A DNA stretch of 21,568 nt, from the IMG/VR virus record IMGVR_UViG_3300045988_101336, positions 1 through 21,568 of that record; one strand, 5' to 3'. Below the pieces are notes generated by a model, which did no database searches, was not told the DNA's origin, and worked only from the letters and a program-made list of their open reading frames with translations. The translations under genes and the position numbers were made by a program. Shown piece by piece: positions 4,247-18,191 of this stretch. The DNA comes from a virus (taxonomy: Duplodnaviria > Heunggongvirae > Uroviricota > Caudoviricetes). The first letter of the stretch is position 1, and each line of letters opens with the position of its first letter.

Positions 4247-4419
4247 GAATACCTCGCCGTGATGAATACACGGCAAGGCTACTGAGTCGCGCCCCGCGAT
4301 TCGCTAAGGTGCTGTTGTGTCAGTGATAAGCCATCCGGGACTGATGGCGGAGGATGCGCATCGTCGGGAAACTGATGCCGACATGTGACTCCTCTAATCA
4401 CTATTCAGGACTCCTGACA

Positions 4420-9600: not shown

Positions 9601-9745
9601 CCCGCAGACGAACGGCGATTTAAGTGCTGATATCAGGCAGCTTGAGAACGCGCTGGCACGCTGTGCCAGCCAGGTAAAAATGATTAAACACTGTCAGGAC
9701 GAAAACGATGCTCAAACCCGACAGCCTGCGCAGGGCGTTGACTGA
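9455..9745 (+). CDS. lysC: LysC, Rz1-like outer-membrane lipoprotein spanin (nested in the +1 frame of lysB)
   Basis: ATG at 9455 gives MKTKIFAAGTVLTCLMLCAGCTSVRPAPTPV... with a lipobox (LCAGC). It starts inside lysB in another frame and extends past its stop. The track ORF 9245..9745 carries a long upstream extension judged non-coding. Confidence 0.75.
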   Translation: MKTKIFAAGTVLTCLMLCAGCTSVRPAPTPVIVANACPKVSLCPMPGSDPQTNGDLSADIRQLENALARCASQVKMIKHCQDENDAQTRQPAQGVD

Positions 9746-10175
9746 TGCCGTCACGGTGCTGAAAACTAACCCCGATATGCTGCGGATATTCGTGGATAAC
9801 GGGAGTATTGCCTCCACACTGGCGACGTCGCTGTCGTTCGAAAAGCGTTACACGCTCAATGTGATTGTGACCGACTTTACCGGTGATTTTGACCTGCTCA
9901 TCGTGCCGGTGCTGGCGTGGCTGCGGGAAAATCAGCCCGACATCATGACCACCGACGAAGGCCAGAAAAAGGGCTTCACGTTTTATGCAGACATCAACAA
10001 TGACAGCAGCTTTGATATCAGCATCAGCCTGATGCTGACCGAGCGCACGCTGGTCAGTGAGGTGGACGGCGCGCTGCATGTGAAGAATATCCCTGAACCT
10101 CCGCCGCCGGAGCCGGTTACCCGCCCGATGGAGCTGTATATCAATGGCGAACTGGTGAGCAAGTGGGATGAATGA
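9708..10175 (+). CDS. R: Tail completion protein R (P2 gpR-like)
   Basis: 155-aa ORF MLKPDSLRRALTDAVTVLKTNPDMLRIFVDNGSIAST... Confidence 0.88.
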   Translation: MLKPDSLRRALTDAVTVLKTNPDMLRIFVDNGSIASTLATSLSFEKRYTLNVIVTDFTGDFDLLIVPVLAWLRENQPDIMTTDEGQKKGFTFYADINNDSSFDISISLMLTERTLVSEVDGALHVKNIPEPPPPEPVTRPMELYINGELVSKWDE

Positions 10176-10617
10176 GTTTAAGCGTTTTGAAGACCGGCTG
10201 ACCGGACTGATTGAGTCGCTGTCACCGTCAGGGCGTCGGCGACTGAGTGCCGAACTGGCGAAACGTCTGCGTCAGAGTCAGCAGCGTCGGGTGATGGCAC
10301 AGAAAGCCCCGGACGGCACACCCTACGCACCACGCCAGCAGCAGAGCGCCAGAAAAAAGACCGGTCGCGTTAAACGAAAAATGTTTGCGAAACTTATCAC
10401 CAGTCGTTTTTTGCATATCCGCGCCAGCCCGGAACAGGCATCAATGGAGTTTTACGGCGGAAAGTCACCGAAAATCGCCAGTGTGCATCAGTTCGGTCTG
10501 TCGGAAGAAAACCGGAAAGACGGTAAGAAAATTGATTATCCGGCGCGTCCTCTGCTCGGCTTTACCGGTGAGGATGTGCAGATGATTGAAGGGATTATCT
10601 CTAACCATCTAGAATAA
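10168..10617 (+). CDS. S: Tail completion protein S (P2 gpS-like)
   Basis: 149-aa ORF MNEFKRFEDRLTGLIESLSPSGRRRLSAELAKRLRQSQQRR...; overlaps the R stop. Confidence 0.88.
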   Translation: MNEFKRFEDRLTGLIESLSPSGRRRLSAELAKRLRQSQQRRVMAQKAPDGTPYAPRQQQSARKKTGRVKRKMFAKLITSRFLHIRASPEQASMEFYGGKSPKIASVHQFGLSEENRKDGKKIDYPARPLLGFTGEDVQMIEGIISNHLE

Positions 10618-10666
10618 AAACATAGTTAATCATCATTGGTGAAATCATTAGGGGGGCAATCGCTTG

Positions 10667-10697
10667 TTGACTTGAAAATAGCGAAAAAAAATATTAT
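10667..10697 (+). promoter_or_regulatory. Candidate sigma70-type promoter for the cargo gene
   Basis: TTGACT at 10667-10672 and TATTAT at 10692-10697 in the AT-rich leader, followed by a weak SD (AAGGG) before the ATG at 10733. The 19-bp spacer is suboptimal, so this is a guess. Confidence 0.3.
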
Positions 10698-10732
10698 AGA
10701 TCATCCTTTTACACTAATCTTAAAGGGAATAT

Positions 10733-12259
10733 ATGCGCGAACCAGTGTATTTAGAAGATGTCTTTAAACTTTCGGGTATCCCGACAATTACTTTTGTTGA
10801 ACCTAACGAGTATAAACACCTCTATGTGTCGATAAGAACAGCGGGAAGAGGGGTAATTATTGAAGGGCCATCAGGTATAGGGAAGACGACTTGCGTAAGA
10901 CAGGTTATTGAAAAGTTAAAATTCGAGACCAGTAGTCGGATAATTAAAGAGTTTAAAGTATTGTCTGGAAGGAAAAAGGAAGATAAAGCCCAGATTGAAA
11001 ATATAATAACAACGAGTGGTTTCGGTGGGGTGATTATTGATGATTTTCATAAGTTAGATGATGAGTTGAAGCATAAAATATCTGACTTGCTGAAAAATTT
11101 AGCGGATGAACAACCCTTAGATTCTAAGTTGATTATTATAGGTATAAATAAAACAGGCAAATCACTGATTGATTTATCACCGGATTTACTAAATCGAATC
11201 TCCATTGTTAAATTTGAGTCCAATCCGGAATATAAGGTCAGGGAGTTGCTAGAAAAAGGTGAGAATGCGCTTAATTTCAAATTAAATGTAAAAGAAGATA
11301 TTGTAAAGGACTCGGATGGGGCATTTCATCTGGCGCAAATGTTGGCTTATAATGCTTGTTTACAGGCTGATATCACAGAAGAGTTAGAATCTCCTCGGGA
11401 AACAAATATTAGCTATGAATCACTTAAAGAAACAGTGATTCAGGATCTTAGCTATAGATTCAATGATATAGTCGTTCGCTTTGTGAAAGGCCAGCGGGTT
11501 AAAAAGGGTAGTAGAGCTCCATATCTCCACGTTTTATATTGGTTATCTAAAGAAGATGAGCGTTCTTTAAATTTGACAAGTTATTTAATTAACAATCCTA
11601 ATCATCGTAATAGCGTTGGGCAAATTCTGACGCGAGGCCATTTAAAAACGCATTATGAGAGCAATCCTGATTTTTCGGATGTTATTCATTATAATGATGA
11701 AACTACGGAGATTTCAATCGAAGATCCCAAGTTTTATTATTATATAAAGAATTTGTTATGGAGCAAGCTTGCGGAGAAGATAGGTTTCACATCATTTGAG
11801 TTTAAGTCGAAATATGACTTTGCTTTATCATTTGCTGGAGCTAATAGAAATCATGCGGAATATTTAAATCAAAAGCTGATTGAGAATGAGTTATCTGTTT
11901 TTTATGATTTCAATGAGCAGGCCAGAATACTTTCTGAAGATGTAGAACAATATCTTGCTCCAATTTATAGGAGTGAGTCTGTTTTTGTAATTCCGTTTTT
12001 GAGTAGGGATTATCCAACTAGAATATGGTGCAAATTTGAAGGTGATACATTTAGGGATAGATTTGGTGATGGGTGTGTTATTCCTTTAAGATATAGTGAT
12101 GCACCTGTTGGCATGTTTGATACTGCCAATGGCATTGGAGGTTTTACCATAAATCCTAGTGAGGATATATACGCACAGCTAGATACATTTGCAAACTTGC
12201 TTGTTGAAAAAATATGTGAAAAAAGAATGCTCTTAAATGGAAAAGAGAATGAAGAATAA
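10733..12259 (+). CDS. P-loop NTPase (Walker A/B) fused to a C-terminal TIR-like domain; candidate single-gene anti-phage defence (abortive infection) protein in the S-V variable locus
   Basis: 508-aa ORF, strongly AT-rich, between backbone genes S and V. Walker A GPSGIGKTT (K51, codon 10883-10885); Walker B-like GGVIIDDFH (D103/D104). C-terminal ~150 aa (from about residue 358, roughly nt 11804 onward) reads YDFALSFAGANRNHAEYLNQKLIENELSVFYDF...SVFVIPFLSRDYPTRIWCKFEGDTF, which matches the pattern of bacterial TIR domains, with a candidate catalytic Glu at E436. Domain calls are by eye, without HMM confirmation. Confidence 0.7.
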   Translation: MREPVYLEDVFKLSGIPTITFVEPNEYKHLYVSIRTAGRGVIIEGPSGIGKTTCVRQVIEKLKFETSSRIIKEFKVLSGRKKEDKAQIENIITTSGFGGVIIDDFHKLDDELKHKISDLLKNLADEQPLDSKLIIIGINKTGKSLIDLSPDLLNRISIVKFESNPEYKVRELLEKGENALNFKLNVKEDIVKDSDGAFHLAQMLAYNACLQADITEELESPRETNISYESLKETVIQDLSYRFNDIVVRFVKGQRVKKGSRAPYLHVLYWLSKEDERSLNLTSYLINNPNHRNSVGQILTRGHLKTHYESNPDFSDVIHYNDETTEISIEDPKFYYYIKNLLWSKLAEKIGFTSFEFKSKYDFALSFAGANRNHAEYLNQKLIENELSVFYDFNEQARILSEDVEQYLAPIYRSESVFVIPFLSRDYPTRIWCKFEGDTFRDRFGDGCVIPLRYSDAPVGMFDTANGIGGFTINPSEDIYAQLDTFANLLVEKICEKRMLLNGKENEE

Positions 12260-12276
12260 CACACAAAATATGCTGT

Positions 12277-12294
12277 TGTGTCAGCTATAGTACA
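12277..12294 (+). promoter_or_regulatory. Candidate P2 late-promoter activator (Ogr-type) site, TGT-N12-ACA, upstream of V
   Basis: Exact TGT (12277-12279) - 12 nt - ACA (12292-12294), the dyad described for P2 late promoters, about 50-65 bp upstream of the V start. It is closer to the ATG than the usual -55 position would predict, hence low confidence. Confidence 0.3.
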
Positions 12295-12341
12295 TAATGG
12301 GAGGTTTGCCGTGCTGCTTTCTTGGCGGCATCCTTCCCGTT

Positions 12342-12977
12342 ATGAACACTCTCGCAAATATTCAGGAACTCGCGCGCGCACTGCGCAACATGATTCGTAC
12401 CGGCCTTGTCGTCGAAACCAACCTTAAAGCCGGTCGCTGCCGTGTGCAGACCGGTGGCATGTGCACCGACTGGCTTCAGTGGCTGACCCATCGCGCCGGG
12501 CGTTCGCGCACATGGTGGGCACCTTCCGTGGGGGAACAGGTGCTGATTCTGGCCGTGGGCGGTGAACTCGACACGGCGTTCGTTCTGCCGGGGATTTATT
12601 CCGGCGATAACCGCGCGCCGTCTGCGTCGGCGGATGCCCTGCATATCCGTTTCCCTGACGGGGCGGTGATTGAGTATGAACCCGAAACCAGTGCACTCAC
12701 GGTAAGCGGAATTAAAACGGCCAGCGTGACGGCTTCTGATTCTGTTACTGCCACGGTACCGGTGGTCACGGTGAAAGCGTCAACCCGTGTCACCCTGGAC
12801 ACACCGGAAGTGGTCTGCACTAACAAACTGACTACCGGCACGCTGGAAGTGCAGAAGGGCGGGACGATGCGCGGCAACATTGAACACACCGGCGGTGAAC
12901 TCTCATCAAACGGTAAGGTACTGCATACCCACAAACACCCCGGCGACAGCGGCGGCACAACCGGGAGTCCTTTATGA
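12342..12977 (+). CDS. V: Baseplate spike protein (P2 gpV-like)
   Basis: ATG at 12342 gives MNTLANIQELARALRNMIRTGLVVETNLKAGRCRVQTGGMCTDWLQW... (211 aa). The track ORF 12297..12977 has an upstream extension. Confidence 0.9.
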   Translation: MNTLANIQELARALRNMIRTGLVVETNLKAGRCRVQTGGMCTDWLQWLTHRAGRSRTWWAPSVGEQVLILAVGGELDTAFVLPGIYSGDNRAPSASADALHIRFPDGAVIEYEPETSALTVSGIKTASVTASDSVTATVPVVTVKASTRVTLDTPEVVCTNKLTTGTLEVQKGGTMRGNIEHTGGELSSNGKVLHTHKHPGDSGGTTGSPL

Positions 12978-14838: not shown

Positions 14839-16013
14839 CAGTGAAATACTACGCCATTCTGACTAATCAGGGCGCAGCACGGCTGGCTAACGCGACGATG
14901 CTCGGCAGTAAGCTGAATCTGACGCAAATGGCCGTTGGTGATGCGAATGGTGTCTTGCCGACACCAGACCCGGCACAGACAAAACTGATTAATCAGAAAC
15001 GCATTGCACCGCTGAATCTTCTGAGTGTTGACCCGAACAACCAGAGCCAGATTATTGCGGAGCAAATCATCCCTGAGAACGAGGGCGGATTCTGGATCCG
15101 TGAGATTGGGCTTTATGATGATGAAGGCGTACTCATTGCGGTGGCAAACTGCCCGGAAACGTACAAACCGCAGTTGCAGGAAGGAAGCGGTCGTACCCAG
15201 ACTATCCGCATGATTCTGGTTGTCTCGAATACCGAAGCCATCACGCTGAAAATCGACCCGTCGGTGGTACTGGCGACCCGTAAATACGTGGATGATGAAG
15301 TCCTGGAATTAAGGCTGTATGTGGATGACCAGATGAGAAACCACATTGCCGCACAGGATCCTCATACCCAGTATGCACAGAAACATAATCCGACATTTAC
15401 CGGAGAACCAAAAGCGCCGACGCCTGCCGCAGGAAATAACACCACGCGGATTGCGACCACTGCGTTTGTTCAGGCCGCTATTACCGCTCTGATTAACGGT
15501 GCGCCAGCCACGCTGGACACACTGAAAGAAATTGCCGCAGCCATTAACAATGACCCGAAATTCAGCACCACCATTAACAATGCGCTGTCAGGTAAGCAGC
15601 CACTGGATGAGACGCTGACTCATTTGAGCGGAAAGGATGTTGCCGGCCTTCTCGCATACCTTGGTTTGGGAGAAGCGGCAAAACGGGATGTGGGGACAGG
15701 GACGAATCAGATACCTGATATGGGTAGCTTCACGCTTTCTGTTTCAGGTACTGGATATCAAAAATTACCATCTGGTTTTATTCTTCAGTGGGGCTCAATC
15801 GGCGCACCAGGTATTGCACAGGATGTGGTAACCCATTTTCCGATTGCATTTCCAAACCGATGTCTGCGTGTTTTGGTCTCACAAGACTACACACCAGATA
15901 GCGGGGCTGTTGGTTATATTGCCTGCGCAGGTTTTAGTTCCGACCCGGTTAAATTTATATCCAGAGCCAGTACTCCTGGCCTCGGCGCTTCATTTTTAGC
16001 GTTAGGCTGTTAA
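14835..16013 (+). CDS. H: Tail fibre protein (P2 gpH-like constant N-terminus, residues 1-~276, fused to a variable receptor-binding tip, currently expressed orientation)
   Basis: 392-aa [53 protein letters not shown]..., a conserved P2 H-like N-terminus. The C-terminal ~116 aa lie inside the invertible segment, downstream of the recombination site at 15649-15674. Confidence 0.85.
15649..15674. repeat. Left invertase recombination site (hix/gix-like, 26 bp) inside the tail fibre gene
   Basis: TTCTCGCATACC TT GGTTTGGGAGAA: two 12-bp half-sites around a central TT, following the Hin/Gin site pattern (TTxTCxxxAACC / GGTTTxxxxGAA). It is an inverted repeat of the site at 17517-17542. Confidence 0.7.
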
Positions 16014-16034
16014 TTTAGCCATATGGAGTGAAAA

Positions 16035-16475
16035 ATGAATTACATATATTCCGCGACTACAAACTCTTTCTATCCGCTGGAGATGAAAGAGGATTACACT
16101 CAAGCTGACTCATGGCCAGATGATGCTGTTGAAGTTGATGAGCAAGCGTATATTGAGTTTTCCGGATTACCGCCGAAAGGAAAAATCCGTATCGCTGGAG
16201 AAAATGGTTTTCCTGCATGGTCTGAAATTCCACCACCAACACATGAGGAACAGATTGCTGCAGCCGAACTGGAAAAGCAGCAACTGATTAATCAGGCCAA
16301 CGATTATATGAACAGTAAACAATGGCCTGGTAAAGCGGCTATTGGTCGTCTGAAAGGTGAGGAACTGGCGCAATATAATTTGTGGCTGGATTATCTGGAC
16401 GCACTGGAGCTGGTCGATACTTCCGGTGCGCCAGATATTGAATGGCCTACGCCTCCGGCAGTTCAGGCCAGATGA
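16035..16475 (+). CDS. G: Tail fibre assembly chaperone (Tfa / P2 gpG-like) for the currently expressed fibre tip
   Basis: 146-aa ORF directly downstream of H, with the typical Tfa C-terminus (...LWLDYLDALELVDTSGAPDIEWPTPPAVQ). Confidence 0.8.
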   Translation: MNYIYSATTNSFYPLEMKEDYTQADSWPDDAVEVDEQAYIEFSGLPPKGKIRIAGENGFPAWSEIPPPTHEEQIAAAELEKQQLINQANDYMNSKQWPGKAAIGRLKGEELAQYNLWLDYLDALELVDTSGAPDIEWPTPPAVQAR

Positions 16476-17049
16476 CATCCGGCGCGGTGCTGGTATCTGT
16501 TGCCGTCACCGCGTCAATGTAATCCAGCACAGCGTTAAGGCGGGTTGTTTCTGCCTGCGTCAGTTTACGTCCGGCCTGCAATTTCAGCTGAATCAGACTG
16601 ATGGAGGCCATTGCAGTATCAATCAGTGACTGACGCTGTGCTTCTGCCGCGTCTACTGCGGCGCTATGCTGTGCCTCAGTATCGGTCACCCATTTCTCAC
16701 CATCCCATTTATCGTATGGCGTTAATGGGGCGATAGTGGTTGTATTTTCGGGGTAATCACCCGGTGCTGTGATTTCTTTGGCATCTCCCGTTTCGGTGTT
16801 ATAGACGATTTCACCGCGATGGTCTGGCACATATTCCCATGAGTTTAAATCCATCGAACGGCAGATAGCATAACCAGCCTTATGTGTACCAGGAGCATCT
16901 AAACAGGAATATGCAGGAATACCGACACCAATGGCAAGATATTCATTTGAAGTGGAAATATATTCCCGAGTTTCACCATCATAGTTATAGACGGTAATAT
17001 TCCCCGCCTTCGTGGCAATAAGCTCGCTATTTAATACGGCGTTATCCAT
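16447..17049 (-). CDS. Alternative tail fibre assembly chaperone (Tfa') belonging to the silent fibre cassette
   Basis: 200-aa minus-strand ORF with a Tfa-like C-terminus (...RLNAVLDYIDAVTATDTSTAPDVIWPELPEA). Convergent with tfa, overlapping it tail-to-tail by 29 bp (16447-16475). Confidence 0.75.
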   Translation of the reverse strand: MDNAVLNSELIATKAGNITVYNYDGETREYISTSNEYLAIGVGIPAYSCLDAPGTHKAGYAICRSMDLNSWEYVPDHRGEIVYNTETGDAKEITAPGDYPENTTTIAPLTPYDKWDGEKWVTDTEAQHSAAVDAAEAQRQSLIDTAMASISLIQLKLQAGRKLTQAETTRLNAVLDYIDAVTATDTSTAPDVIWPELPEA

Positions 17050-17570
17050 TATGCAGCCCTCACGATAAAGTTAAATGCAATATTTCGTGGACGGGTTTCA
17101 CTCCCGCCAGTATTACCGATACTCCCTCGTGAATGAAGTGTCGGTGACGGGATTAGGCTCCCTCCTGTATTTGTGGCATCAAGTCCTCGCCCTTGTGTGT
17201 ATGTTTTTTTGAAAATCGTAGCCAGTTCCCATTCATCTTTCGTGTCGTAACCATCATTGGCAACAACAATATGACGGTGTTTTTCCAGCATTCCTGCCTG
17301 AATACTCAATAAAACACGTCCTGCATCAATACCGCGCCCGTCATCCCAGCCACGAATAAACTCACCGCGTAAATCAGGTAATTTATTTGTCGGATAAGCC
17401 TTTGCCAGTTCCGGGTATTCTTCAGCAGAAAAAGCCGCACCGTTGCATTTCAGCCAGCCTGTTGGCGGTGTGGCTGAAGGCCACGGAACAGGCACACCAA
17501 CAGGTAATGCAGAGCCTTCTCCTAAACCAACGTTTATGAAAATGCAGAGATAACGGGCAACTGGCATCAT
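17049..17570 (-). CDS. Alternative tail fibre C-terminal (receptor-binding) cassette Sv', promoterless in this orientation; functional part about 17052-17528
   Basis: Minus-strand ORF whose first 20 codons (...INVGLGEGS) include the recombination site and parallel H residues ...[10 protein letters not shown]. Contains a tail-collar-like motif LPDLRGEFIRGWDDGRGIDAGR. The ATG at 17570 is probably incidental; expression would follow inversion and fusion to H. Confidence 0.7.
   Translation of the reverse strand: MMPVARYLCIFINVGLGEGSALPVGVPVPWPSATPPTGWLKCNGAAFSAEEYPELAKAYPTNKLPDLRGEFIRGWDDGRGIDAGRVLLSIQAGMLEKHRHIVVANDGYDTKDEWELATIFKKTYTQGRGLDATNTGGSLIPSPTLHSRGSIGNTGGSETRPRNIAFNFIVRAA
17517..17542. 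repeat. Right invertase recombination site (inverted copy)
   Basis: Plus strand TTCTCCTAAACC AA CGTTTATGAAAA; its reverse complement TTTTCATAAACG TT GGTTTAGGAGAA matches the left site in 11 of 12 positions of the right half-site and 8 of 12 of the left, with an identical central dinucleotide. Confidence 0.65.
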
Positions 17571-17591: not shown

Positions 17592-18191
17592 ATGCTCATG
17601 CTTATTGGCTATGTACGCGTGTCAACAAATGACCAGAACACGGAATTGCAGCGTAACGCGCTGGAGTGCGCAGGATGCGAGCGGATTTTTGAGGATAAAA
17701 TCAGCGGCACGAAGTCCGACCGACCGGGACTGAAAAAACTGCTCAGAACATTATCAGCAGGTGACACTCTGGTAGTCTGGAAGCTGGACAGGCTGGGGCG
17801 TAGTATGCGGCATCTGGTCATTCTGGTTGAGGAACTGCGCGAACGCGGCGTTAATTTTCGCAGTCTGACGGATGCTATTGATACCAGCACGCCGATGGGG
17901 CGTTTTTTCTTTCATGTGATGGGTGCCCTGGCTGAAATGGAGCGAGAACTCATTGTCGAGCGGACACGCGCCGGACTGGAAGCGGCCAGAGCCAAAGGTC
18001 GTATTGGTGGCAGACGTCCGAAACTCACCGCGAGTGAGTGGGAGCAGGTCGGACGGTTGCTGGCTGCGGGGGAATCTCGTCAACGTGTGGCGCTGATTTT
18101 TGATATTGGCCTGTCCACGCTCTATAAAAAATTCCCCTCATCAGCGGCAAAGAATAAATTGTGTCATCCCTTAGCCAACCGGGACAAATAG
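17592..18191 (+). CDS. Serine-recombinase DNA invertase (Hin/Gin/Cin/Pin family)
   Basis: 199-aa ORF M(LM)LIGYVRVSTNDQNTELQRNALECAGCERIFEDKISGTKSDRPGLKKLL...GDTLVVWKLDRLGRSMRHL...FRSLTDAIDTSTPMGRFFFHVMGALAEMERELIVERT...GGRRPKLT...LSTLYKK. Near-identical in pattern to Gin/Hin, including the catalytic serine motif (YVRVSTxDQ) and C-terminal HTH. The true start may be the ATG at 17598. Confidence 0.92.
   Translation: MLMLIGYVRVSTNDQNTELQRNALECAGCERIFEDKISGTKSDRPGLKKLLRTLSAGDTLVVWKLDRLGRSMRHLVILVEELRERGVNFRSLTDAIDTSTPMGRFFFHVMGALAEMERELIVERTRAGLEAARAKGRIGGRRPKLTASEWEQVGRLLAAGESRQRVALIFDIGLSTLYKKFPSSAAKNKLCHPLANRDK

Follow-up and report, generated by a model that had tools for sequence, protein, structure and literature searches.

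What does a single AT-rich gene do among the late genes of a GC-rich P2-like prophage, and where does it come from? The question is raised by a 21,568-nt stretch of Caudoviricetes DNA (positions 1 to 21,568 of the IMG/VR record IMGVR_UViG_3300045988_101336, the window hereafter), in which the interval between genes S and V holds a cassette encoding one large protein, a predicted fusion of a P-loop ATPase and a TIR domain. The explanation that we favor, and consider probable, is that of a prophage-borne single-gene NLR-like NADase defence candidate, carried as a one-gene moron cassette in the variable S–V slot of a P2-like prophage; its function is what we infer.

The window is a segment of a P2-like prophage, and the cargo gene is flanked by the P2 genes R/S and V/W (Pfam, E 1e-14 to 1e-45). 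The gene order is R–S, cargo, V–W–J–I, with the core order otherwise intact (Pfam and RefSeq annotation), and E. coli 28A18CPO003A has a complete prophage, located between yegR and trhP, whose annotation shows the same arrangement. The GC content is 0.353 for 10618–12341, compared to 0.540 for the remainder of the window, and GC at third codon positions is 0.30 in the cargo gene and 0.50–0.73 in phage genes. In 50-nt windows, GC falls at about 10575–10625 and climbs back at about 12275–12325. The sole open reading frame (ORF) of at least 100 amino acids (aa) inside the interval is 10733–12259 (plus strand, 508 aa); a second gene, transposase or integrase, was not found in the ORF scan at this threshold. 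Hence the abrupt compositional switch and the single large gene, both proposed by a sequence-only reading of the window, are borne out, whereas the replacement proposed there, running exactly from the S stop codon to the V start codon, has to be redrawn.

The junctions were placed by alignment with the empty site of phage pro483, which has a 66-bp S–V spacer, and with P2, which carries orf30. Backbone homology stops at 10599, so that the left junction (10599/10600) lies 18 nt inside S (10168–10617, plus strand; virion morphogenesis/tail completion, Pfam Phage_tail_S, E 5.6e-44). Homology is back from 12325 (GGCGGCATCCTTCCCGTT-ATG), and the right junction (12324/12325) lies 17 nt before the ATG of V (12342–12977, plus strand), the baseplate spike gene that opens the V late operon (Pfam Phage_base_V, Phage_spike and Apex, and the RefSeq annotation of the identical prophage). 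The swapped cassette, compared to empty P2-like sites, occupies 10600–12324 on the plus strand (GC 0.35) and stands in for approximately 84 bp, that is, the S tail and most of the 66-bp spacer. The last six codons of S are replaced (EGIISNHLE-stop vs EEIILAHLDR-stop), SNHLE-stop being cassette-encoded. As neither terminal repeats nor target-site duplications were found at the cassette boundaries, the event looks like a replacement by recombination, not an insertion; a transposon or insertion-sequence origin was rejected because of the absent boundary repeats and the lack of a second gene.

The encoded protein is predicted to consist of a Cdc6/Orc1/STAND-like P-loop ATPase with a lid and a winged helix (approximately aa 1–352; 10733–11788, plus strand), a TIR domain (approximately aa 358–475; 11804–12157, plus strand), and a C-terminal helix (479–506). 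Pfam families AAA, AAA_14, and AAA_22 match at aa 36–160, and PHROG 6841, of unknown function, matches with E 3e-87; the NCBIfam scan of the protein gave only noise, and the PDB sequence search with the full protein, nothing below E 0.18. In an alignment of 46 homologs, down to 47% identity, the Walker A motif (G45-PSGIGK51-TT, conserved as G45...K51-T-T53), the Walker B residues D103 and D104, N139, R155, and W432-x-K-F-E436 of the TIR domain (W432-C-K-F-E436 in the window, a WxxxE motif) are invariant or nearly so, the strings GPSGIGKTT and VIIDDFH (Walker A and Walker B, respectively) being invariant.

The AlphaFold model is confident (pLDDT 87.6, pTM 0.82), and its best Foldseek matches are Cdc6, ORC1, and clamp loaders. 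It aligns over 240–263 residues with Cdc6/Orc1, 2qen, Avs5, and NB-ARC, the ATPase with the winged helix resembling Cdc6/Orc1, archaeal Walker ATPases, and the NTPase modules of Avs5 and NB-ARC proteins. The TIR (flavodoxin-like) fold is present, with similarity to plant TIRs as well as to the NADases AbTIR and PdTIR. Moreover, a TIR-only profile matches AbTIR and RPS4, with E436 placed opposite the Glu of “WTNYE” in AbTIR and “WCVRE” in RPS4; this Glu of the WxxxE motif is catalytic in both proteins. A dedicated sensor or repeat domain (TPR, LRR, WD40 and similar) was not found, as there is neither a match to a Pfam repeat family nor an extra domain in the model, which ends with the TIR domain and one helix. 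Judging by the model, the protein would be a sensor-less NLR-like one, in which a Cdc6/Orc1/STAND-type ATPase, together with its lid and winged helix, precedes a fused C-terminal TIR domain with a catalytic-type Glu.

The closest non-identical homologs all come from other P2-like prophages, where they occupy the gpS–gpV interval in the same orientation. Their identities are 84%, 83%, and 79% in metagenomic and run assemblies, 66% in Serratia marcescens, 67% in Rahnella, and 65% in Erwinia tasmaniensis, and in all twelve S–V loci examined the cargo gene is the only gene of the cassette. In a co-divergence test on seven loci (21 non-independent pairs), in which the cargo identity was compared with the mean identity of R, V, W, and J, the former tracks the latter (Pearson r 0.77; means of 71% for the cargo and 66% for the backbone). 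All ORFs are intact, and synonymous sites between alleles are saturated (pS 0.75–0.86), while pN is 0.11–0.24; because of this saturation pN and pS are given instead of dN/dS. These values point to strong purifying selection on the cargo gene. Throughout the loci the cargo GC stays at 0.35–0.36, vs 0.57–0.62 in the backbones. As the AT-richness was kept through the co-divergence, the locus is a clear example of compositional contrast outlasting deep co-divergence with a GC-rich backbone, and composition alone is unfit for dating the acquisition.

On the other hand, E. coli P2-type phages whose slot is empty or occupied by orf30 have R, S, V, W, and J proteins 95–100% identical to those of the window. 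For the cargo, identity to the closest non-identical allele is only 84%. A near-identical backbone combined with a diverged cargo allele means that the locus is mosaic. The gene thus appears to be an old, selected resident of the S–V slot in the P2-like family, foreign to its present E. coli-type backbone, and the cassette would have arrived there by a swap from a diverged P2-like donor and not by insertion from outside. The horizontal acquisition suggested earlier is retained in this sense, but AT-richness and codon usage, taken as a sign of recent foreign origin, are not, since same-slot homologs keep 35% GC.

Homologs are also found in environmental bacteria (Nitrosomonas, Marinomonas, Chitinibacter, Paenibacillus). 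In Aeromonas sp. BIGb0445 (locus L016, 6001–8438) a 60%-identical homolog is located outside the S–V slot, downstream of a P2 gpA-like gene; a TIR_2 protein of 175 aa and an ORF of 133 aa come after it, an arrangement that may be a multi-gene variant.

How the slot is used by E. coli-type phages was assessed in two ways. In a census of 5426 complete E. coli genomes, an artificial empty site made by joining the two flanks served as a query and revealed the backbone in 1588 genomes; the island is present in two. The flanks join within approximately 1.4 kb in 1450 out of 1591 matching records, and the records sampled are mostly empty (span 1870) or orf30-sized (span 2744). The second set comprised 80 E. 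coli-type viral contigs from IMG/VR with gpS 96–100% identical. Here the S–V gap is empty in 57 contigs (72 bp in 55, 75 bp in two), 946 bp long, the orf30 type, in 17, 1277 bp in four, 1046 bp in two, and 1727 bp, with the ATPase-TIR gene, in one.

Together, the observed states of the slot are empty, orf30 (946), 1046, 1277, 1311, and the ATPase-TIR cassette, with at least four cargoes besides orf30. The alternative occupants (orf30 and three others) are single AT-rich genes (GC 0.335–0.353) on the minus strand, encoding the orf30 membrane protein, two proteins of unknown families, and one RelA_SpoT protein. The latter, 363 aa, is encoded on the minus strand of the 1311-bp slot insert of Escherichia sp. 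MOD1-EC7003 (L019, 6447–7759; Pfam E 1.8e-21; PADLOC candidate PDC-S33, E 3e-16), and its sequence makes it a CapRel/toxSAS-like defence candidate.

The S–V (orf30) position is therefore a real, though low-diversity, cargo slot of P2-like phages, with at least two defence-like occupants. Its assignment as the orf30 moron site, made from the sequence alone, agrees with the Pfam matches of the flanks, with the P2 record, which annotates a nonessential orf30 in the S–V interval, and with the polymorphic occupancy; likewise, the suggested alignment of the S–V interval among related prophages revealed a variable slot, with the RelA_SpoT/PDC-S33 protein as another defence-like occupant. The expectation that the gene is variable cargo and not a core gene is correct for the E. 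coli backbone, where it occurs in two genomes out of 5426, but the same gene is a long-term slot resident in P2-like prophages of other genera.

Copies of the cassette are 99.8% identical in two E. coli chromosomes and three IMG/VR contigs, and near-identical proteins are encoded on several hundred draft contigs of E. coli and E. fergusonii. A tblastn search of the cargo protein against 50,697 phage records yielded no match, the gene thus being absent from isolated, sequenced P2-like phages, and a single-protein scan of GTDB genomes with gpS gave only three close loci.

P2-like hotspots are documented reservoirs of anti-phage genes, and the passages covered here name the A–Q, Z/fun, tail-protein/CI, and integrase-proximal positions, as well as positions “downstream of GpL” and “within the tail genes” (PMC9122126; 10.1101/2024.10.15.618418; PMC13586616); in these passages the S–V slot or orf30 is not named as a hotspot. 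Compared to the P2 moron loci (orf30 at S–V, old/tin at A–Q, Z/fun in the tail region), the cassette has the position of orf30 and is likewise AT-rich, dispensable, polymorphic, and located between conserved late genes. It differs from orf30 in that the ATPase-TIR gene is unrelated to it, lies on the opposite strand, and is a long-term resident in other genera, not rapidly swapped. The cassette appears to be a new occupant of a known P2 moron site, and its product, as far as sequence comparison goes, an uncharacterised variant of NLR-like TIR defence proteins.

The cargo gene has putative expression signals of its own. A predicted sigma-70 promoter is located at 10672–10700 (plus strand), with TTGAAA (10672–10677), a 17-nt spacer, and TATAGA (10695–10700), and is conserved in relatives: the window and loci L004, L008, and L009 share TTGA(A/T)N, the 17-nt spacer, and TATAGA, while the spacer sequence diverges. 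It is followed by a Shine-Dalgarno-like AAAGGGAA (10722–10729, plus strand), 4 nt before the ATG, conserved as AAAGGGA, TAGGGA, or CAGGA in the same three loci. The promoter-like leader proposed from the sequence is thus upheld in kind, but the hexamers named for it, TTGACT (10667–10672) and TATTAT (10692–10697), were rejected, as they are separated by a 19-nt spacer and are not the conserved pair. The promoter is embedded in S in L009, where only 13 nt separate the S stop codon from the cargo ATG, and in the Serratia locus (L010), TTGATA-17-TATAAT is observed inside the end of S; in these two loci the cargo gene begins 13–38 nt after S. A weaker, putative promoter-like site overlapping the S end of the window (TTGAAG-18-TAGAAT, 10586–10615, plus strand; 9/12 matches in a consensus scan) matches the Serratia one in position. 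From these alignments, the cassette seems to carry its own promoter, and S to read into the cassette until a stop codon is met, which would explain the variable S C-terminus.

This variability was observed in all cargo-bearing loci, where the C-terminal 6–10 residues of gpS differ and are encoded by whichever cassette is downstream (window 10600–10617; L009 5940–5987; L010 5920–5962). Moreover, gpS identity among P2-like phages (window, L004, L008, L009, L010, L013, L015) is 42–67%, far below that of R (gpR of the window at 9708–10175, Pfam), V, W, and J. No correlation with these four was observed (r = –0.01), and S may thus be fast-evolving or have a mosaic history of its own.

The cargo protein was compared with known and candidate defence systems. 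Its best PADLOC match is candidate PDC-S59 (E 1.5e-19), an unvalidated one; the likeness is limited to the ATPase with the winged helix. Matches to the STAND families remain below Pfam cut-offs (nSTAND5, 19.3 vs 34 bits; nSTAND3, 18.2 vs 27.2; NACHT also below), while many relatives of the ATPase module match nSTAND5 or nSTAND3. The family has approximately 2000 detectable homologs, and the ATPase with the winged helix, approximately 1000 cluster representatives. Out of 54 long representatives of this module, 47 are fused to TIR and 12 to a calcineurin-like phosphoesterase; SEFIR, SIR2_2, DUF4062, kinase, receiver, and EAD1 fusions are also observed. Such effector combinations have been described for predicted counter-invader NTPase systems (PMC8195603). 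The ATPase-module relatives share with those nSTAND systems the nSTAND5/nSTAND3 matches and the TIR, phosphoesterase, kinase, and EAD1 effectors; the systems in question, however, were predicted computationally, for the most part in multicellular bacteria, and are not phage cargo (Kaur, Burroughs, Iyer, and Aravind; PMC8195603). The cargo protein itself is below the cut-offs. Members of the family are single genes without a conserved partner, some of them being solitary chromosomal genes outside phages, and relatives are found as AT-rich inserts among terminase, portal, tail-chaperone, tape-measure, and spike genes of unrelated viral contigs. The family is thus large and recurrent in structural operons of unrelated prophages, yet outside curated defence models.

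With STAND/NLR-like NTPases (Avs, TIR-NLR, bNACHT) the cargo protein shares the P-loop NTPase, the Walker A motif, an hhhhDD-type Walker B motif, the helical lid, and the winged helix, but it has no C-terminal sensor and matches no curated family model. The P4-encoded TIR-NLR, reportedly from the work of Rousset and co-authors in 2022, and Avs5 (SIR2-STAND) are said to be single-protein STAND defences. From bacterial TIR NADases (AbTIR, PdTIR, TIR-STING, SpbK) the cargo protein differs in that its TIR domain is fused to an ATPase; TIR-STING is activated by a cyclic dinucleotide, and SpbK, by the phage portal-like protein YonE. In Thoeris, a thsB TIR gene stands in an operon with a separate effector, whereas the cargo gene is alone in the S–V loci and distant homologs have no conserved neighbor. 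Given the scores, the missing sensor, and the lone gene, the cargo protein was not assigned to Avs/TIR-NLR, Thoeris, or NACHT.

The favored defence reading, for which the lone gene, the AT-rich inserts among structural genes, the exchange of effector domains, the PDC-S59 match, and a PDC-S06 candidate at the A–Q hotspot of the prophage serve as indirect evidence, can be formulated as follows. The cassette would stem from another P2-like phage and would have entered by recombination, the crossovers falling in the S 3′ end and the V promoter region; it would supply its own sigma-70-type promoter and ribosome-binding site, leaving the Ogr-dependent V late promoter downstream. In a lysogen, small amounts of inactive protein might be present. 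Infection by a competing phage could be sensed via the ATPase and winged-helix module, the cue being perhaps DNA or an intermediate of replication; nucleotide-dependent oligomerisation would then bring the TIR domains together and form active NADase sites. That such sites form solely in the oligomer is taken from the analogy with TIR-NLR, Avs, SARM1, and TIR-STING. Cleavage of NAD+, through its depletion or an ADP-ribose-derived product, would lead to abortive infection protecting the lysogen population together with the prophage. The Cdc6/Orc1-like winged helix makes DNA a plausible cue, although this is a guess. NADase activity, expression in the lysogen, the trigger, and the defence phenotype are all steps that we infer. 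If lysogens are protected, a compact (1.5 kb) single-gene ATPase-TIR system would be added to the anti-phage repertoire, and the sensor-less protein would offer a simple test case for how an NLR-like NTPase senses infection and gates a TIR domain.

Several observations weigh against the defence reading. The Pfam TIR_2 match (aa 363–456, E 4e-6) scores 27.6 bits against a cut-off of 28, that is 0.4 bits short, so the TIR assignment rests on the structure model and the profile search. The PDC-S59 match (aa 53–337 vs profile positions 110–399 of 428) covers the ATPase and winged helix but not the TIR domain, and leaves the N-terminal part of the PDC-S59 profile unmatched; no validated PADLOC system was matched, and no Avs or TIR-NLR model at E ≤ 0.1. 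As no sensor domain is recognisable, any trigger is a guess. Experimental characterisation of the ATPase-TIR family was not found in the literature searched, nor was any literature on PDC-S59, on the ATPase-TIR/AAA-TIR architecture, on the RefSeq accession, or on PHROG 6841. The conserved –10 box TATAGA is without the usual final T. The rough co-divergence over deep time is unusual compared to the rapidly swapped defence cargo described for P2 and P4 (PMC13586616). Finally, the orientation along with the late operons and the absence of a terminator after S mean that the gene may be expressed mainly in the phage's own lytic cycle, which would fit a phage-benefit role as well as defence.

The last point leads to the main rival, namely, a lytic-cycle gene read through from the O late operon and encoding a counter-defence or host-takeover enzyme that acts on NAD+ or nucleotide immune signals or on lysis timing. 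We consider it unlikely, though it accounts for several features. The cargo gene is oriented like the late genes, whereas orf30 and the three other cargoes are antisense. No intrinsic terminator was detected between S and the cargo gene or after the cargo gene, so that read-through from the O late operon is likely, and in L009 and L010 the close spacing to S described above also speaks for this rival; the same slot and the rough co-divergence across genera resemble a semi-core accessory gene. However, the gene has its own conserved predicted promoter even where it overlaps S, is missing from more than 99% of E. coli P2-like prophages and hence dispensable, and has family members that are solitary chromosomal genes; its ATPase module has the same domain partners as predicted immune and conflict systems. 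We know of no precedent for an ATPase-TIR anti-defence protein.

Alternatively, as in Thoeris, where bacterial TIRs yield cADPR-type signals (10.64898/2025.12.03.692087), the TIR domain might produce a nucleotide signal and thereby activate a distinct effector, whose gene would lie in another part of the prophage or in the host. The small TIR protein and the additional ORF downstream of the Aeromonas homolog agree with such signalling, but the cassette has only one gene across all twelve S–V loci, distant homologs lack a conserved neighbor, and standalone or fused TIRs are generally taken as NAD+-depleting effectors, for which reason they were left out of the Thoeris/TIR survey. This makes a Thoeris-like mode quite improbable.

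A selfish or decaying passenger without a current function, hitch-hiking in the prophage, seems very improbable. The cassette is rare in E. coli, and AT-rich DNA is commonly silenced there by H-NS, both of which a passenger would explain; against it are the intact alleles with pN of 0.11–0.24 at saturated synonymous sites, the invariant catalytic and nucleotide-binding residues, and the several hundred contigs of E. coli and E. fergusonii with near-identical copies. A role in lysogenic conversion or virulence, in which the TIR domain would interfere with eukaryotic TLR/MyD88 signalling like TcpB/BtpA-type proteins, is hardly credible, since, despite a weak match of the TIR profile to Brucella TcpB (E 0.008) and human isolates among the carrier strains, homologs are spread through the environmental bacteria listed above, the invariant ATPase motifs point to a regulated enzymatic activity, and residues 1–35 read as a conserved lead-in of a cytoplasmic-type ATPase.

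Returning to the defence candidate, a more far-reaching version of it is doubtful, although worth stating. The protein might represent a new class of minimal sensor-less immune receptors, in which the Cdc6/Orc1-like module recognises phage DNA or replication structures, polymerises, and switches on the TIR NADase. The same version would have the S–V slot hold a lineage-resident AT-rich immune gene, retained for as long as P2-like phages have diverged across Enterobacterales, rather than transient cargo.

Downstream of the cargo gene, the predicted Ogr-type activator box of the V late promoter is located at 12271–12294 (plus strand) and consists of TGCTGTTGTGTCAG (12271–12284) followed by the rest of TGT-N12-ACA (12277–12294). 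The former is identical over 14 nt to 4310–4323 upstream of gene O of the same phage, and a related box is present upstream of FI. TGTTGT is conserved in all P2-like loci and aligns with the annotated P2 activator-binding site, and the box center is 56 nt before the V ATG, in agreement with that site; the P2 record gives the V ATG as the V transcription start. The claim that the V late-promoter element was retained at the right boundary is hence supported by the likeness of the box to those of other late promoters of the phage. Taken by itself, the bare TGT-N12-ACA motif was discarded as evidence, since it is not enriched in the window (one match vs 4.85 expected by chance).

Between the late-promoter box and the V ATG of P2-like phages, including empty sites, we observe a GC-rich hairpin of the type TGCCGnnnn-loop-nnnnCGGCA, followed by ATCCTTCCC (window 12307–12330; L001 1253–1276; L010, L013, L009, and L008 just upstream of V). 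Compensatory (covarying) changes are seen in its stem from phage to phage. P2 itself has lost the hairpin, and the window has a shortened one. As to its role, it might be a terminator of upstream transcripts or a part of the promoter architecture. In the window, a hairpin before and over the V start (12293–12344, plus strand) has an RNA folding energy of –33.3 kcal/mol (z –4.2). Its inner stem (12307–12312/12325–12330) is a degraded, shortened form of the conserved hairpin, while the outer 12-bp stem (12293–12304/12333–12344) is specific to the cassette and not found in other cargo-bearing loci. In it, cassette bases CATAATGGGAGG (12293–12304) are complementary to CCTTCCCGTTATG (12333–12344), which holds the V start codon. 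As folded, the outer stem would mask the V start when transcription reads through from upstream, whereas transcripts begun at the V promoter would be free of this effect.

An in-frame ATG at 12297, overlapping a GGGAGG stretch, would lengthen V by 15 codons; it is probably not used, RefSeq and all homologs starting V at 12342.

The window contains a second cargo region. Positions 1–1350, beside portal gene Q, are AT-rich (GC approximately 0.29) and correspond to the classical A–Q (old/tin) hotspot. On the minus strand, 1–921 encode the N-terminal 307 aa of an ATPase running off the window start and matching PADLOC candidate PDC-S06 (E 5.6e-92). With this candidate at A–Q and the ATPase-TIR gene at S–V, the prophage carries two defence-like cargoes. 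A further GC decrease, to approximately 0.43, is observed at 15750–17250, where the tail-fibre end and oppositely oriented ORFs resembling tail-fibre assembly genes (16447–17570, minus strand) are located; a recombinase-like ORF (17592–18191) is located in or near this stretch, which resembles the invertible tail-fibre/Z-fun region annotated in the identical E. coli prophage.

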